From contig OZ024762.1 of NCBI GenBank assembly GCA_964016885.1, forward strand, positions 15,624,001-15,688,000: a stretch of 64,000 nt of DNA, in the 5' to 3' direction. The DNA is from Eledone cirrhosa (Eukaryota). The notes under the pieces are model-generated. The model was not told the DNA's origin, searched no databases, and worked only from the letters and a program-made list of their open reading frames with translations. This document shows, in pieces, positions 26,579-44,125 of the stretch; position 1 is the stretch's first letter; each line of letters opens with the position of its first letter. A program made the translations under genes and the position numbers.

Positions 26579-26726
26579 TGATAACGAAAGGACAGATTAC
26601 CACAGGACAATACAGATTTCTGGCCAAACAAGGTGGACATGTATGGCTGATCACTCAAGCAACGGTCATCTATGACAACCGTTCACAGAAGCCACTCTAT
26701 GTTGTCTGTGTCCACTGTGTACTCAG
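26579..26726 (+). CDS. HIF1A: HIF-alpha PAS-B/PAC exon
   Basis: ttccag/gtaggt. [50 protein letters not shown]; 148 nt, phase 1 to 2. Confidence 0.96.
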
Positions 26727-28039: not shown

Positions 28040-30306
28040 CGAGATTGAAAATCAACACGAAATACTCTCCATAGTGCAACAGCCCATATCTTCTTCATCT
28101 CAGTCACAAACAGATGTCTCCATTAAGGACAGCAAAAGCCACGACAACAAGAACAAGAACATTAAATTATTATCATCATCATCATCATCGTCAGCATCAG
28201 CGTCATCAAGACCAGTTTCTGGTGAATGTAGTCGATCCTACGCTCTGCTTGTTGCTCGGAAGATTGCCGCTTCGAGGAACGAGAGTCACCACATGCTGAA
28301 GAGCAAGAAAGAAGTGGCTGCGGAGAGTGATGGCGGTGGCGGTGGCAGTACGAGCCATCGACGTGGTGACAATAACAGCAATGATGGCTGCAGAACGAGG
28401 AACGAGGATGGCGACAAACCCTCATTGTCTCCGTATTCGTTGCCGTTGTCACCGTCAGCCGGCAACGTGTCCAAATCTATGCCGTCGTCTTCAGCAACAG
28501 CAAATTCTTTGTCCTCCTCTTCTCACCTTCTCGTGCTGTCCAGGCTTGGCAGCATGATGAACCAGCGCGAAGAATGGTCAAAGATGTGCAACGGTGATGT
28601 GACGAAACGTGGCTTTGGCAGTGTCGAAGATGAGATGCAGCAGCAACCGAGAGGACAGGAGAGGATGAGGAAGATAAAGAGGAGAGCTATAAACAACGAG
28701 GCTGAGAGAGTGATTAATAATATGAAGAATGATTACGGCAGTGAGACGTCGTTGGTGAAGGAAGAAGATGATGAAGTTGTTGTTGTTGGCGGCTGTAAAG
28801 ACAGTGGTGGAGGTGGTGGTAGTAGCGGTAGAGATGAACACGATGGTGAAGAAAGAGAAGACAGCAAGGGCATGAAATGGAAGAAGAAGAGACAGAAAGC
28901 TGACGATGCTGCTTTGATGAAGGACGGTGTAGTGGTTAATGCCCTCAATGTCGGCCTCCGTGACTGGCCGGCTGACAAATTCGTTGAAGCTTTGGAGCGC
29001 GAAGCGAAAATGCATTTTGAGAAAGCAGTGAAAAGTGACAAAAAAAAGGACAATAGTTTAATTGACTGGAAAAATACGAAGAAAGGTTACAATGGTGAAG
29101 CCAGGACAGACGAGAGTGTCTTGGCTGATGGCTTTGATGGTTGTGTTGGTGATTATAGCAAGAGAAAAAATACCAGAGTCAGCAGAGTGTCTAGATATGG
29201 AGGAAAAATGAGTGTCGAGGACATAGACAGTGCCGGCGGTGAATATTGTGAAGACGAAGATGAAGAAATGGAGGAGAGGGGCAGGAGAAAGAAAGCATGT
29301 AACAAGGCTGACAGCTTTGATAGCATTCTAGAAGTTTCTGAATATGAAGTGGAAACAGATGGTGAAGAGGATGAGAGAATTGATGGCAGAGTAAAAGATG
29401 GATGGAATATGAAGAACAACAAATACAATGTCGGTTCTGTGGAGATGAAGGAGGATGTTATGGATAATGGTTTTGACATCGGCATTAGGGACGTGTCAGA
29501 TGTTGGAAATGAGGAGATGAATGTTGACAGTGTGGTCATTGTGAATGGCAAGTATGATGATGATGATGTGGAAAGTGACATGATGGTCGAACTAACCACG
29601 TCAAGGCAGAGGAAGGCCAAGAAAATGAAGAATGATCTAAGTAACGATCCAATGATGATCGCTAAGAAAAAGAAAAAGATGACAAAGTCAAATGAATTTG
29701 TGAACCAGAACCAGCCACTTACATCGCCAATGAAGGACCTGAAGATAGAATCAGATGAGAGCGAAGTATTTGGACCCAACTCAATTGGGTATTCATTGAC
29801 GCCCACCGATTTCACTGTCGTCCCGTCGGCTCTCATTGAAGATGATAGCGATGATGATGATGTCACTGTTGTTGGCACGTCAACCGAGAACCCTCGATGC
29901 CCAACCCTGCTGCCAAGGAGCGTCGCTAGTGATGAGGGCAGCGACAACAACAGAGAGGTCAACAGTGTCGGCACATACCAGCAGGAGCTGAACCACTTCC
30001 ACGATCGCTACGGCACTGGTCACAGCCCAGGGCTTTTGCTAAACACGGAGAGGATCTTCACACCTCGGACTAAGGATATGGATGAGGATCACAGCACCAA
30101 CCCAAGCAACATCTCTCCTAACAACAGCACAGCAATGCTGACACCGTTTGTCATTGAAAACAACAACCGTAACAGCTCTGGGGTGACAGGTTCTAACAGT
30201 AGTGGAAGAAATGGCTCTACCAACATGTTAATTGATGACTTTGTGGCCCCAACAACAATGCTGTTTGATGCTCAAGATGACTGTGGTGGCACATCAACAG
30301 CTGGAT
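28040..30306 (+). CDS. HIF1A: HIF-alpha very large post-PAS exon (2267 nt, acidic/low complexity)
   Basis: tttccag/gtgagt within the 779-aa ORF. Begins EIENQHEILSIVQQ (post-PAC motif) and contains TERIFTPRTKDMD, resembling the invertebrate HIF pre-ODD motif; phase 2 to 1. Confidence 0.85.
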
Positions 30307-32045: not shown

Positions 32046-32129
32046 GCATTAATGCGTTGGATGATTTGACATTTCGTGCACCAAGTGCTGGTGATGTGTG
32101 TATAGATTTGTCTGTACCTCCTAACTTTG
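32046..32129 (+). CDS. HIF1A: HIF-alpha N-ODD exon
   Basis: tttcag/gtaagt. CINALDDLTFRAPSAGDVCIDLSVPPNF, cf. human DALTLLAPAAGDTIISLDF (P402 site); phase 1 to 1. Confidence 0.92.
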
Positions 32130-32489: not shown

Positions 32490-33755
32490 CAGGGTGTGGA
32501 CGATATTTGTTCGCAATTTTCAACTGCTAATTTTATGCAAATTTTTTTTACTTCCGTTGTCACTCTTGTCTTCATAAAAACAGTGACTATATTTCCATTA
32601 TTTATTTTCAGAATAATTGATTATGAATAATTTTGAACCTCCAAATTTGTGGAAGAGATACAGAGTTCTTCTTGGAATCCGCGCCGGGAGGACAAATAAG
32701 GAAATTTCAGACTTTCTCAGCGTCAGCAGGAGAATGGTGGAAAAGGTCAGAAAGGAATTGGAAGATTAAGGATTCGACTACGAAGCAACATCAGAGAGGA
32801 AAACACATGATCGATGATCTGACGCCTTCAGAACGCCCGAGTTCGTCGCTGAAGTTCAGGATATCATCAACAATGAACCTAGCAAGTCGATGCATGCCAT
32901 TGCAAGGGAGAAAGGCGTGGATGAAAAGCTCATTAGGCTGGTGGTACATGAAGACATTTGCTACGTTTCATACAAGATGAGGAAAGGACAATTTCTGTCA
33001 AAGGCGATGCAAGAAAAGCGACTGAAGCACACAAAGAAGCTGATCAACAAGTTGAAACACCCACTGGAGCCAGACATGCTGTGGTTTTTCTCCGACGAGA
33101 AAAACTTCTGCCAAGACCAGAAGATCAACTCCCAGAACAACAGGTGGCTCGCTGTCTCATCCAAAGACGTGCCCAGAGTCACGCAGACAAAGTTTCCAGT
33201 GACAACATTGGTCTTAGGTGTCGTCAGCAGTCAAAGTGACGTTATGCCACCTCACTTCTTCCCTGAGGGCCTCAAGCTGAACACCGATGGCTATATCTAC
33301 GTTCTGAGCGAGGTGGTAAAGCCCTGGATCAACAGGTAGCTGCAGGTAGGCCGTACGTGTGGCAGCAAGACTCAGCGCCCTGCCATACCAGCCAAAAGAC
33401 CCAAGCCTGGCTGTCAGAGAACTTCGTCAACCACACTTCACCTGACATCTGGCTTCCCAGCTCGCCTGACTGCAACTCCCTTGACTTCTTTATGTGGGGC
33501 GCAACAGATCTAGCTGCAATACAAAAGGCGATCTGAAGGCCAGGATCACAAGTGCCTTTAGGAGCCTAAGTCGAAGGCCTGTAGCCGGTTCCGAGGCCGT
33601 CATCAAAGCCAATGGCGGGTTTATCGGGTGAGATCGAAAGAACAAGTCATGAAGACAAACTGACCCAAGTTTGATAAATATATCTTAAAAAATAAAACTA
33701 CTGTGTTGTTTTTTCCTAGACGGTAATCTTGCGAACAAATATCGTCCGCACCCTG
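32490..33755 (+). mobile_element. Tc1/mariner-superfamily DD37D (maT-type) transposon, decayed
   Basis: TIRs CAGGGTGYGGACGATATTTGTTCGCA with TA flanks. WFFSDEKNF...QQDSAPCH...SPDCNSLDF, 37 residues between the second and third D. Frameshifted. Confidence 0.93.
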
Positions 33756-33837: not shown

Positions 33838-34527
33838 TCTGAATGAAGACGAGCTGGGGATCCAAATAAGGTGAAACAATTGTTCTCGGTATGGTGAACT
33901 AACTGTTGTGGAACTACTTCTACCAAACTCATCCCAAGGACTGAGTGCTCTACTACTACGGATATAACCTTCCAGTGTTCTACTATTAAATATATATATA
34001 TTTCTCTGGTGGAATGTACAATTACAAACATTTATTTTTTCTGTAGGAAAAATTTCAATATTCAGAAACTAATGATTCTAAAGCTAGAATATAAAATTTA
34101 AAACAAAAAAAAATTTAATTTCACCAATGACCACTCTGAATGTTTAACACAACCTTCAAAGAGGGTCACATCCCCCCTACTTTGGTAATATATCTATAAC
34201 AAAGGAAGTGTGGTAAGGAACCAGGTGGACCATAACGCACCAGAGTACTCGATACTTAGAGTAGTAGAGTGGGTAATAGGAAAAGAGTCAGGACCCCGAC
34301 AGCTGAGCTCCAGCCGTTTTGACAGCTATTTCTGAACAACTAGCTGTCAAAACGGCTGGAGCTCAGCCGTCGGGGTCCTGACTCTTTTCCTATATGTGTG
34401 TGTGTGTGTGTTTGTAGATGTTATATTTGTATATGATGTAAGTTGTAGATATATAGACTATACACATAGTATTTTGTTTTCTTTCTCCGTTTGACTTCCC
34501 TGTTTCTTACTTGTCTCCCTTCAACAG

Positions 34528-34655
34528 AATCCTTGTTCAAAGTTCCCAGCATCGATGTTGACGATTCCTACACCATTAATACCGTCGGTATGTCAGAGAT
34601 ATGTGACAATAAACCCCAATGTGTAGCTGTACCAGATCTGTCTTCTCAACTACAG
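34528..34655 (+). CDS. HIF1A: HIF-alpha ODD-region exon
   Basis: Long pyrimidine tract plus caacag, donor gtagct; open frame ESLFKVPSIDVDD...SSQLQ; phase 1 to 0 fits the neighbours. No conserved motif. Confidence 0.7.
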
Positions 34656-34925
34656 GTAGCTAGATCTCATTTTATTTACTTCACTATATTACTATATTAT
34701 TATATGGTGGATTGGCAGTATTGGTAGAGGGTTGGATGCCATGCTTTGCAGCAAAGAGTTACGGCCCTTTCTGGTCTGAGTTCAAATCCCGCCGAGGTTA
34801 ACTTTGCCTTTCATCCTTACGGGGGTCGATGAAATAAAGTACCAGTAATACACTGGGATAATTGCTGGCCTTGTGCCAAAAGTAGAAATAATTATTATAT
34901 ATATATATATATGTATATTTCTCAT

Positions 34926-34961
34926 TCTTCTGATGAAAGACTAGCGTCCGAAACGTTAAAA
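34926..34961 (+). ncRNA. Minimal hammerhead motif of a dispersed repeat (other copies 12621-12656 -, 18120-18155 -, 47308-47343 +)
   Basis: Family consensus tctt CTGATGA ar gac-tagc-gtc c GAAA cg TT aaga; stem III is the ACGT palindrome. Confidence 0.65.
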
Positions 34962-35603
34962 CCCTCTTCCTGCTATAGCAAGCGTTAACCTAATATATTC
35001 TTTCCATATACTGTACCGATTGTGTTGTTATTTCTGTTTACCTTTTACATCATCATCATCATCATCATCATCATCGTCGTTTAAAGTCTATCTTCCACGC
35101 TAGCATGGGTTTAGACGGGAGTTGTCCCACGTGATGCAAGATTGGTTGTCTTGCTCGTATAGGACTGTCTGGCAGGTTTTCTATGCCTGGATGCCCTTCC
35201 TAACACCAACCACGTTTACAGTGTTTACTGCGAGGTTTTTACCATGTTACCTACACAGCCACATTACAGCGTGGACTGTGTACTTTTGTTGTGACACCTA
35301 CACGGCCTCATTTATTTAGGACTGGATATTGTGGCACCGACATAACTTTAGGTGTAGATGGCGGTGGGGGTGTATTTTTGGTTAGGCGGAGCCCACTGAC
35401 TGTAGGTTTCGCTTTGTACTTAGGCAAGGCGGGTCTGCTGTATTACTGCGTAGCGCCAAAGATCTCGGTCCAGTGACATTGTCTTGGAGAGATGTAAGTG
35501 TGTAAGGTCAGAATTTATCAAATCGTCCCATACTGTCTGTATATGTATATGCTAATTATCTAATATTCCCATCTCTTTCAAACCCACATCACGATGACAA
35601 TAG

Positions 35604-35698
35604 GATTTCAACGTAGAAGAAGCAGAGTACGATATTATGCAGACCACCCTGACATCAAACAATGAAAGTATGATGCTAAGTCCAGACATTGGAGATAT
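35604..35698 (+). CDS. HIF1A: HIF-alpha exon at the expected C-ODD position (degenerate)
   Basis: First AG after a pyrimidine tract, donor gtgagt. DFNVEEAEYDIMQTTLTSNNESMMLSPDIGD; phase 0 to 2 bridges the flanking exons. Confidence 0.7.
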
Positions 35699-35798
35699 GT
35701 GAGTTCAATTCCCAGACATTGAAGCAACCCTTCTATTAATCTCTTTTGATTCTTTTTTTCTTTCTTTTATTTATCTTTGTATATTTTGTATGCAGTTA

Positions 35799-36568: not shown

Positions 36569-37419
36569 GATGTATTCAAAGAACATGTTGAGCCCCAGAA
36601 ACAAATCAGAAACAGGGTTGGACAAGGGACTCCTGCGAAGGTCCCCTTTTAATGAAAGCCCCTCACTAAGACCAGTACCCACTAAGACAATTATGGTCAA
36701 TCGCAGTCCTAACCCAGAATCAAACATAGAACTGAACACGCTTGCACCCAACAAGGGCCCAATGATGACCCAGATACAGCAGCCAATGACCCCTACTCAT
36801 AACCGTAATCCTAAAGGTAACCTCCAAGTTGGCGAAGGGCTGAAGCGCACGATTGCCCAGAACATGGGTTCACCACCCATCCAACAGCTGATGATGACAG
36901 ATCAGCCGGGGACAATAACATCTCATGTGAGCTGTAACACTAACCTCCCAGATGTAGAGGACATATTAATGCGCACATGTGCCCTCAACAATGAGTGCTC
37001 GCCATCACTAATACAACAACCGACATTGACAGAGAGGTTGAGAGCGACGATATCATCTGCTGCTAACCCTAACTCTAAATTACAAGCAGAAAAAATGCTG
37101 AAATGCGTGCTTGCCCTCAACAGGTCCCCAATGACTTCACTATCAGATTCAATGGCGATGAGGGCTCAGATACAACAACCAATGATGAGCCCCAACCTAA
37201 GCCAAAACTCTAATCAAGCACTTCTTCACAGCAAGGAATTGTCCGTGCAACCAGACCCGGGGGGGAAAATCAGGGGCCCTACCCCAGGGAAGGTTCGTAG
37301 ACTCGAGCCACTACTGATGTCAGAGGAAGTTCAACATCAAGAAGGAGATGGAGGTGTTTCCCCTCAGCAAGGATTTGGATGGCGTACAGCACAGACACGA
37401 CGACTGATCCACGAATATG
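36569..37419 (+). CDS. HIF1A: HIF-alpha exon with internal IQQP repeats
   Basis: cttcag/gtgagt; lies in the 304-aa ORF; phase 2 to 1. Confidence 0.82.
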
Positions 37420-38501
37420 GTGAGTATCATCATCATCATCATCATCATCAATTCACGTCCATCTTCCACGCTAGCATGGGTTAGACGGGTCCCATTTAGA
37501 GGCAAGCTGTGTCGGGTGACCGTCTTGCTCACATAGCGGTGTTTCTGGCTGGTTTTCTACGGCTAGATGACCTTCCTAACGCCAACTACAATCTATATAT
37601 ATAATGGTTTTTTATTTAGGCACAAGGCCATCAAATTAGGGGGAGGGTAAAGTCGATTAAATCGACCCCAGTGCGTGACTGGTACTTTATTTTATCGACC
37701 CCCGTAAGGATGAAAGGCAAAGTCAACCTCGACGGAGTTTGAACTCAGATCATAAAGGGCCGTAACTCTATGCTGCAAAGCATGGCGTCCAACTCTCTAC
37801 TCATACTGTCAATCCACCGCCTTCTATATATATAAAGTTGACAGGATTAGCATAAGTTTCCCTGCTAGTACCAGTTACATCTCAGCGTACTCAAATCCCA
37901 GAGTAGACACAAAGTTAATTGCTTCAATACAACACATGTAAATGAGTACCATAATATATATATACCCGTACTCGAGTGTTGGCCACACTTAATGCAGCAA
38001 GAGGGTGCACAGCATCTACTGTCTACATTTATTATGTAACAATATATATATAAATACTTTATGAATAATGTCCAAGAGTGTTTAACCCTTTAGCATTCAC
38101 ATTACTCTATATATACTATTGTATTTTCATGGTAAAGGCTTTACCTCACATAATATCTCACATAACATTTACATTACTCTATATATACTATTGTATTTTC
38201 ATGGTAAAGGCTTTACCTCACATAATTATCTCACATAATATCGAATCTATGAGATTTTGAGAACAATACCTTAACATCAGTTTGAGTGACCAGTTACAGC
38301 CAGTTTCAACAGAAAGAGGTAGAGAATTCTGGCCGGTTTTGGCTAGTTTGAACATCAAATGGTTAAGAACATGTTCTTAAACACTCTTTGATTGTTATTT
38401 ATAAAGTATTTCGACTCTGTATTATATTTGTTATTTTACATTGAGCTATTCTCATACTGGTAATTGGATAATATTTAAAATTACCCTCATTTATATATAT
38501 A

Positions 38502-40744: not shown

Positions 40745-40854
40745 GATCTGCGAACAACAAGGACAGCGTTTTACGGAACCTTCTGGTCAGTGGAGAAGAT
40801 CGTAACAATGGCTACTTTGTCAACAATCAGCATGTTGGAATGCCTTATCTCATG
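40745..40854 (+). CDS. HIF1A: HIF-alpha exon with SVLRNLLVSGED motif
   Basis: ctacag/gtaagt. GSANNKDSVLRNLLVSGEDRNNGY resembles the SVLxNLLVxG motif of invertebrate HIF-alpha; phase 1 to 0. Confidence 0.85.
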
Positions 40855-41099: not shown

Positions 41100-41103
<4 letters not shown>

Positions 41104-41690
41104 CTTCCCTACGAATGTTGGCAAATGCCCAAAACTCCGAGTTGGTACCATCAATGTAAGCACAATGAAAGGAAGAGCAGGAGAAATGCTAGAGCGAAAG
41201 GAAATTGATGTAAGCTGTTTGCAAGAGACTAGATGGAGAGGAGAGTCTGCTAGAGTCCTTGTAGGAAAAAGTCAGTGCTACAAATTTTTCTGGGTGGGAA
41301 ATGACGATGGTGTAGGTATGCTACTAGCTGACAAGTGGGTAGATAAAGTAATCTCAGTGTACAGGGTAAATGCAAGAATCATTAAACTCAGACTAGTCCT
41401 GAATAAAACAATTACCACAATAATATCAGCTTACACACCCCAATCGGGGTTTCCAGACGAACTTAAGGATAGGTTTTACGAGTCCCTAATGCACACTACT
41501 GCTCTAACAAACGACAATGACTTCCTAATCATCGCAGGAGATTTTAACGGACACGTAGGTAAACACTGTGACAGCTTCAATAGAGTCCATGGAGGCCATG
41601 GGGTTGGCACAAGAAATGAAGGAGGATTCAAACTTCTAGAATTCTGCGACGCCAATGACATGTTGATATGTAACACAAACTTCAGACACA
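41100..41690 (+). mobile_element. LINE AP-endonuclease fragment (RTE-type)
   Basis: LRVGTINVSTM, LQETRWRG, GVGMLL, ISAYTPQ, IAGDFNGHVG, LLEFC. Confidence 0.9.
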
Positions 41691-42585
41691 AACAACCGAC
41701 CAGACACTGCCCACAACAGGACAACCCGTCTAACCGATGCTAGCATGGAAGAATGGACGTAAAGCGGTGATGATGATGATGGTGATGATATATATATATA
41801 CATATATACACACATACAAATCATCATCATTTAATGTCTATTTTCCATACTTTATTTGCATTGGTTAGACGGGTTATGAGACATTATGGAACTGGCGAAC
41901 TCAGGTCAGGGAAACCACGTGTTGCTCATACAAATCTATTTTATGTTTGGTCTCGTGGCATGAAGCAACTGAGAGTACAAGATCTCCCTCAGGACAGGAC
42001 GATAGTCCATTGCAGGATGAAACTCCAGAGCTATTGCAGGTACTCGTTTTCAGCTGAGTATACTGGAGCTATGTGACATGAAGTGTTTTGCTCAAGAACA
42101 CAACACGCAATTCAGGAATTGAACCCACGACATTATTTCTCGTAAGTCCAACACCCTTACCACTAGGCCACGTGCCTCCACACAGCTATGAGCTGTAAAA
42201 AGACAATAACATAGAAAGACAGGAGACCCTAGCATTAAAATACTAGAAACCTCCTACAACCTCACTGGAGGCTGACTAAACCTACATGGGATGGAGATGT
42301 TTACGTTTGTTTTTCATGCTTGTTCGGGTTGACTGGGTGTTCTAGTATAGTGTCTCACCATTTGTGGTGGCTTATTGTCATCTCAATCAAGTTGTTCTTG
42401 TCTTCTTCTTCATCTCCATTTTCCCCTCTTCCTCCTTTTACTTCCTCTTCTCTTATCATGTCGCTACCAGTGCAATCTCTCCTATACACAACATCTGATT
42501 TTTCTTCTCAGATTTTTCTTTCAGTTTATTCATGCTTTATCATTTATGCATATTCATGAGAATATATACATATATATATACACTG

Positions 42586-42784: not shown

Positions 42785-43502
42785 CCACAAACCCTAACTG
42801 ATCCACCTACCAAGATGGACAGTTCCTTCTTGGACAGAGTTACCAACAAGAACTCTGTCAGCACCGCAGTGGCTGGGGATCCCACCAGCACCCAGTGCAA
42901 CCTCTCAACCGTTGCCAATAGCAACCACCACGAGGACAACAACAGCAGCAGCAGCAGCTTGTCTCCACAATATCATCATCATCTGTGAAACGTGGAAGCA
43001 ACCAGAAGCAGCAGGACTGGGTGTGGTGGTGGGCTCTTAATACGACCGTCACATCCCCTACAGTAAGTTGCCCCAGTTCTATCATCACTAGCACAAGTTC
43101 CAGCACTAGTAGCAAGGATAACGTGATGGTTTCAAGTTCTGCAGATGCTGCCAGAAGCAATGTCATTTCCCCAACACCACCACCACCACCACCGTCTTAC
43201 CTGATGACGTTGGGCAGTTCATCGTACGATAAACGGGCCCTGTTTGGGGAGGACCTTGTTGGCAGCGGATCACTGGATCAGACCACCTTGAACGGCCCCT
43301 CAAGACTTAAGGGCCCCCGTGGTAGTTTCTTGTGCAACTCTACGCTATCGCAGTCGTCCGACGACATCCAAGCCTTGTTTCGCGAAGGCATTGCCCAGCC
43401 ACCAGAAGAGGACATAGTGAAAAAGAACGTGAGCTGTGACGACATTTCAAAAGTATCCAAGGGAACAACCACTACTACTGCCGCCACTAGCACCAGTAGT
43501 AA

Positions 43503-43534
<32 letters not shown>

Positions 43535-44125
43535 CTGTGCCTACTACCCGTCGTTTGTCATCTAGTCTTCTTCATGATGACATCCAAGCGTTGTTTGGTG
43601 TGGATCTTGACATGGATGAGTTAAGGGATGCGACACAGTCAAACCCTATCACCAGAGGTACAAATTCAGTAGAGGGCAGCGCCAACCAGACAGGAAATGC
43701 TCTCTCTAACCTCTTGCCCAATGGCAAGTCGTCAAGGTCTTCCTACAATATGCAGACAATGTTTGGTGTGGATCTCGTCCCTGCTGGACAGTTGAATATG
43801 GCAAGCCCAGCTGAGTGTGCCGTCATCTCAACAAAAACTACAACTACTGCTACTAATAATGGCATTCGAACACCAAACACCCAGTCTTCAGCTGTTATTC
43901 GGAACAGCAGTAATAATATTAATATGAAATATGGAGTGAAAATGCCCAATACCCAGTCTTCAGCAAGACCACAAGGTTTAGCTATGGGCTTGACCACAGC
44001 GCCAAAATGGTTGCCACGCCTCACGCAAACTGACTGTGAGGTGAATGCTCCAATTTGGGTCGGGAGAGCGCCTACTCAATGGCACGGAATTGTTAAAGGC
44101 TTTGGATGTGGAAAATATCTTTTGA
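42785..44125 (+). CDS. HIF1A: HIF-alpha terminal exon with C-TAD; two frame breaks as assembled
   Basis: Strong acceptor ttctctctcttctgacag. [15 protein letters not shown] (FIH Asn codon 44044-44046) is in one frame and [22 protein letters not shown] (TGA 44123-44125) in another. The entry frame stops at 42986. Confidence 0.8.

Follow-up and report, generated by a model that had tools for sequence, protein, structure and literature searches.

We find that HIF-alpha of the octopus Eledone cirrhosa lacks a canonical C-ODD and retains its N-ODD. On balance, we favor an account in which the C-ODD has eroded and oxygen control has come to center on the N-ODD, probably with slower turnover. PHD hydroxylates a proline in an ODD, VHL then binds, and HIF-alpha is destroyed.

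The window, which is the whole 64-kb stretch of DNA analyzed (G000:C23:15624001-15688000), contains 0 N letters and carries a 13-exon bHLH-PAS gene on the forward strand, with GT-AG borders at all modeled introns and an open frame of 1939 residues. A HIF-type bHLH and two PAS domains are present. The bHLH exon (15701-15888, between AG and GT) matches PF23171 with an E-value of 4e-18 and Octopus bimaculoides at 97%; no short start-codon exon was located upstream of it. PAS-A occupies exons 18744-19099 (tblastn with the O. bimaculoides protein; AG/GT) and 19824-20027 (90% to that protein; weak PF00989), and PAS-B occupies exons 25214-25320 (PF08447 and O. bimaculoides alignment) and 26579-26726 (PF08447/PF14598; 93%). 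The linker exon between the two domains (22149-23227), with a long acidic low-complexity insertion, and a 2267-nt low-complexity exon without a Pfam family (28040-30306) are both placed by alignment to O. bimaculoides and by splice sites. Toward the 3' end lies a conserved K-D-S-V-L-R-N-L-L exon (40745-40854; 91%).

O. bimaculoides XP_014772617.1 (P0005; 2318 aa) is the nearest relative and aligns to 13 of 13 exons with their order kept. In a midpoint-rooted tree of 31 rows, the window gene groups with HIF-alpha and not with SIM or NPAS1-3; together with P0005 and P0009 (756 aa) it forms one clade (100/99) inside mollusc HIF-alpha (100/99). From its position in the tree only, we infer that P0009 is a non-octopod cephalopod protein. 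Among the matches listed (150 of 406 and 120 of 1100), none was a HIF-alpha from a named squid, cuttlefish or nautilus, and the clade sample consists of three independent sequences: the window gene, P0005 and P0009. Searches of the 3.0-Gb genome with PAS-B, oyster HIF-alpha and the C-TAD gave no second HIF-alpha, canonical or otherwise, and returned only the window locus plus SIM-like and NPAS1/3-like loci; one of these searches used a stricter first pass, and its counts are a lower bound. Of these, the locus on C1541 has NPAS3/1 as its best match, and the locus on C10 is SIM-like by motif. The C-TAD family exceeded its cut-off at the window locus only. We conclude that the window gene is the single HIF-alpha found in the E. 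cirrhosa genome.

A first-pass annotation of this DNA had proposed that the canonical C-ODD is lost and that no APYI-like sequence occurs in any modeled exon. Both points were borne out: none of the gene's frames contains an APYI/RAPY motif or an APY/APF-type C-ODD, and the loss extends to XP_014772617.1 and P0009. The annotation had also suggested a search with the Pfam HIF-1 family for a missed micro-exon. PF11413 gave one match in the genome, at 18.1 bits and below the cut-off of 27, and a C-ODD profile run over 3913 six-frame segments, introns included, found none (best i-E 7.7). Two C-ODD profiles were built from 41 non-cephalopod relatives picked for R-A-P-[YF]-I, with the Nucella paralog P0002 excluded. 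They recovered the C-ODDs of locust, zebrafish and beetle at no worse than 1e-6 (14-27 bits), and found no C-ODD in the window gene model, P0005 or P0009. Of a canonical C-ODD ([LR]-A-P-[YF]-I plus an acidic tail; PF11413), only a remnant core was seen. As far as the three sequences show, the loss is lineage-wide and not an artefact. A-P-[YF]-[IV] is missing from 14 of the 154 HIF-like proteins longer than 600 aa that were compared. Four of the 14 belong to the octopus clade; the others comprise four with a variant core that includes proline, two scorpion proteins with Thr, the degenerate P0002, and three with no profile match. C-ODD erosion thus has precedents yet is uncommon.

The position equivalent to the C-ODD probably falls in exon 36569-37419, which is supported by alignment to P0005, splice sites, and MAFFT and HHalign. 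Of the words sampled from 36570-37420, a fraction of 0.89 occurs in run X1; a homology search with 36573-37418 gave no match among proteins up to 2000 aa. The N-ODD proline and the C-ODD proline are 100-153 residues apart in 31 relatives (median 117), and the equivalent residue lies 116 residues after the N-ODD proline in the window gene, P0005 and P0009. MAFFT alignments with all 31 relatives put the C-ODD proline column on Pro1578 of the window gene (codon 36645-36647) in seven of seven settings, and subsample alignments did so exactly in 23 of 30 cases and within one residue in four more. Masking the core left the column at offsets 110-135 and placed it in exon 35604-35698 in 0 of 30 cases. 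The same column is the second proline of Q-T-P-P-F in P0005; in P0009 it is the valine of Q-K-D-V-F (four of seven settings), with no proline. Around Pro1578 the window gene reads L-L-R-R-S-P-F (36630-36650), a remnant placed by these alignments. An exact LxxLAP, found by motif search, follows in the same exon (L-N-T-L-A-P, 36732-36749; proline codon 36747-36749), 34 residues past the remnant proline; it arises in 1.3% of shuffles and has Ser in P0005. The first-pass annotation had overlooked both elements. HHalign chose Pro1578 in local mode and preferred the LxxLAP proline, Pro1612, in global mode.

We infer that the remnant proline would be hydroxylated poorly or not at all. An acidic residue at +5 to +9 of the C-ODD proline is found in 41 of 41 relatives, and in neither octopus remnant; in human C-ODD, Asp571, which matches this acidic tail, is reported to bind PHD2 Arg396 and VHL Arg107 (PMC5007464). 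The remnants of the clade are also unlike one another (RRSPF, QTPPF and QKDVF in the window gene, O. bimaculoides and P0009), and its N-ODD core is nearly constant. Several observations count against the reading that we favor. HHalign confidence across the region is low (0-4 of 9), the remnant proline is retained in both octopuses, and Owenia has R-S-P-Y as its natural C-ODD core. In addition, R-[AS]-P-[FY] appears in only 0.5% of segment shuffles, for a pattern that was picked after the remnant had been seen.

The strongest competing explanation, which we consider rather unlikely, is that a divergent C-ODD still works, with Pro 36645-36647 or the LxxLAP proline hydroxylated and two-site control persisting. 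The spacing of 116 against a median of 117, the retention of Leu at -5, Arg at -2 and an aromatic residue at +1, and the Pro-Phe common to the window gene and O. bimaculoides would all fit a functional site, and Tyr at +1 is reported to raise hydroxylation of the human N-ODD more than sevenfold (PMC11406255). The LxxLAP scores a p(max) of 0.003 on a matrix of the N-terminal half of the C-ODD. However, the remnant has no acidic tail, O. bimaculoides differs at -3 to -1 with proline at -1 and has replaced the LxxLAP proline, and P0009 has no proline at the C-ODD position at all.

Erosion of the C-ODD is accompanied by a well-kept N-ODD. The N-ODD exon (32046-32129; L-T-F-R-A-P-S-A-G-D, target proline codon 32081-32083) is the top six-frame match (i-E 1e-4) of a profile built on the N-ODDs of 31 relatives; this profile scores 14.4 bits on the window model versus 11.1 for a zebrafish control. 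At 85% to P0005, compared with 34-70% for its neighboring exons, it is among the best-conserved parts of the gene after PAS-B, and its core is identical in O. bimaculoides. At position -2, 135 N-ODD matches have Leu in 128 cases, Val in three and Arg in four, the Arg cases being P0005, P0009 and two further proteins that cluster with P0009; Arg is also found in the window gene. Invertebrate C-ODDs usually have Arg at -2, and we speculate that in the N-ODD it might compensate for the lost C-ODD.

Under our preferred explanation, the C-ODD of HIF-alpha in this clade would have eroded beyond profile recognition, PHD would hydroxylate the retained N-ODD proline, and VHL would bind the hydroxylated N-ODD as the main route of oxygen-dependent destruction, with turnover slower or the oxygen threshold shifted. 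Control that is N-ODD-centered and probably slower is suggested because human P402 in the N-ODD is reported to be much slower than P564, even with P564 removed (PMC11406255), because one hydroxylated proline is reported to suffice for VHL (PMC12537007), and because in Tribolium the N-ODD proline is described as the major PHD-dependent site, a C-ODD mutant being without obvious stabilization (PMC6488082). The first-pass annotation had expected normoxic degradation to be reduced or altered. From sequence, 'altered' is likely; 'reduced' is plausible by analogy with human kinetics. Oxygen control has probably not been lost, given that the N-ODD is kept and PHD, VHL and FIH exons are present.

These components comprise exons of a PHD2-type enzyme on C14, of VHL on C3 and of FIH on C8. 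The PHD and VHL exons have open frames with key residues retained: PHD keeps the H-x-D...H iron-ligand triad, the MYND finger and, by residue count, the equivalent of Pro317, which is needed for N-ODD hydroxylation, and the VHL beta-domain exon keeps the pocket W, Y, H and W. The last PHD exon (L007:227-307, on C14) has Lys at the position of human Arg396. A comparison of 68 metagenome loci, 46 of them with the last-exon motif, provided 37 distinct PHD sequences with Arg in 24, Lys in 12 and Pro in one at this position. Co-evolution of PHD was thus rejected as an interpretation of this residue, Lys being ordinary in other PHDs, and PHD shows no clear shift in selectivity toward the N-ODD. Counting residues in the VHL beta-domain (L006:1474-1791, on C3) puts Tyr where human VHL has Phe91 and Val where it has Arg107; we draw no argument from the Val.

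A more radical possibility is that oxygen-dependent degradation has been largely lost, leaving HIF-alpha partly stable in normoxia and controlled through transcription and through FIH at the C-TAD. The slow human P402 (PMC11406255) could be read this way, as could the VHL Tyr, a change at Phe91 that is reported to lower affinity in the human protein (PMC6650433). The FIH exons are present, and the N-ODD Leu-to-Arg change could harm rather than help. We regard this outcome as improbable: the N-ODD exon is better conserved than its neighbors, the PHD and VHL exons are open with key residues kept, and the beetle offers a precedent for the N-ODD as major site (PMC6488082).

The first-pass annotation had taken exon 35604-35698 as the expected C-ODD position. 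Its reading of the exon itself was accurate, with an acidic lead-in, an LSP tail and no motif, between AG and GT. The exon is real and spliced. In one 6323-nt contig of run X1, 34527-34653 and 35602-35699 adjoin with 0 differing letters and the intron skipped; runs X2-X4, all from one sample, contribute DNA-type contigs that span 35501-35760, also with 0 differing letters. We treat run X1 as RNA only on the strength of this splicing; the run records list none as RNA. The preceding linker exon, 3' of the N-ODD (34528-34655; 64% to P0005), is supported by the same contig. The location is probably wrong: measured from the N-ODD proline, exon 35604-35698 covers offsets 59-90, versus 100-153 for the C-ODD proline of 31 relatives, and received the C-ODD column in 0 of 30 subsample alignments, with the core masked or unmasked. 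Its alignment partner is the K-E-E-P / S-P linker, and the exon, at 70% to P0005, is probably a Ser/Pro linker preceding the C-ODD.

We see little probability that this exon is nonetheless the C-ODD exon, with M-R-A-P changed to M-Q-T-T and the proline to Thr at 35646-35648. Its acidic lead-in resembles that of Aplysia by eye, it is the third-best window of a -11 to +3 C-ODD matrix in the window protein, and it has a Gln|Asp phase-0 junction, which we take to be as in human HIF1A exon 12. The by-eye alignment found no support in profiles, matrix scan or subsample alignments, however: the matrix score is -7.4 bits and not significant, the spacing of 73 falls outside 100-153, and the masked and unmasked alignments are unanimous. 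This alternative concerns location only and would leave the functional reading the same. That a canonical C-ODD exon exists and either escaped the gene model or fell out of the assembly is scarcely credible, for although the spliced contig shows only the junction 34655-35604 directly, with the rest of the exon chain resting on length arithmetic, the window has no N, the introns have no profile match, the contig agrees in length with the model (4449 versus 4433 nt upstream; 1651 nt downstream, equal to the 851 + 110 nt of the following two exons with 690 nt more, and ending beside a microsatellite), and a canonical C-ODD is likewise missing from P0009 and from O. bimaculoides, whose gene model is independent.

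The two-ODD HIF-alphas of other molluscs (Magallana gigas A0A8W8ICI4, Leptochiton, Aplysia and Haliotis) share with the window gene the bHLH-PAS-PAS architecture, the N-ODD and the tree clade, and they have the C-TAD that the last exon of the window gene matches in two halves. Unlike it, they retain R-A-P-[YF]-I followed by acidic residues, their N-ODD has Leu at -2, and they are about 700-860 aa long compared with about 2300 aa for the octopus type. The O. bimaculoides ortholog (89% over 331 N-terminal columns) has the same exon order and no canonical C-ODD, but differs in its Q-T-P-P-F remnant, in lacking the downstream LxxLAP and in its uninterrupted C-terminal frame. Tribolium castaneum HIF-alpha, with the N-ODD as major site, exemplifies the mode proposed here for octopus, although its C-ODD proline is still recognizable and is described as fine-tuning (PMC6488082). 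Most bilaterians are reported to have two ODDs, and known single-ODD animals to keep the C-ODD type (PMC6650433, PMC6235002). Trichoplax and cnidarian HIF-alphas are described with one ODD of C-ODD type, whereas octopus has apparently eroded this one; cyprinid HIF1aA and eelpout lack the N-ODD and keep the C-ODD, the opposite of octopus, where no paralog was found (PMC6235002, PMC6650433). In HIF-alphas of the scorpion Centruroides (P0196, P0201) the C-ODD proline is Thr, and the Nucella lapillus paralog P0002 has a degenerate C-ODD beside a second copy (P0187) with an intact one; in both cases the flanks still match the C-ODD profile. An N-ODD-like site is present in P0196 and P0002.

In the literature the C-ODD is presented as the older and dominant element, and what the N-ODD is for is called unclear (PMC6235002, PMC11406255, PMC12537007). 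If the only HIF-alpha of a lineage depends on the N-ODD, it provides a natural test of whether the N-ODD suffices, and bears on how the hypoxia threshold is set in active, oxygen-hungry cephalopods. More tentatively, and less likely than not, cephalopods as a whole may have lost the C-ODD of their only HIF-alpha, with N-ODD-only sensing through a C-ODD-like Arg(-2) and a reset oxygen threshold; such an animal class would be the mirror image of early animals with their single-ODD state. The erosion in octopus HIF-alpha is likely a new observation. No report on cephalopod ODDs was found in the running text of openly available papers. O. bimaculoides is in a supplementary table of PMC6488082, with octopus unnamed in the main text; PMC9618697 includes Octopus genomes, with the ODD unmentioned in its main text. 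The available portions of PMC5470732 do not mention octopus, those of PMC11255218 describe only HIF1A mRNA measurements in O. maya, and those of PMC9865615 hold nothing relevant to cephalopod ODDs. The database title of the O. bimaculoides ortholog, 'uncharacterized protein LOC106870896', may explain why the erosion has gone unremarked.

The last exon (42785-44125) carries sequence for the C-TAD with its FIH-type Asn motif. Relative to O. bimaculoides it has two compensating frame changes, at about 42965 and 44060, and the window protein as assembled stops at 42986-42988, before the C-TAD. Assembly indels are likely here because the middle frame is open for 407 codons; if the frame changes are real, the C-TAD is lost too. 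Both halves of the L-x5-[DE]-V-N C-TAD match PF08778 behind the two changes, and it is intact in O. bimaculoides. Octopod HIF-alpha is about three times as long as other HIF-alphas usually are, owing to low-complexity insertions in the PAS region (22149-23227) and before the N-ODD (28040-30306) that are common to the window gene, P0005 and P0001 and absent in P0009. The intron after the N-ODD exon contains transposase-like frames at about 32800-33560 (weak Tc3-type match, E 0.07), an endonuclease fragment of a LINE-like element lies at 41102-41740 (PF03372, PF14529), and the intron segment 34665-35565 is full of very high-copy short repeats, with a summed contig depth in the millions.
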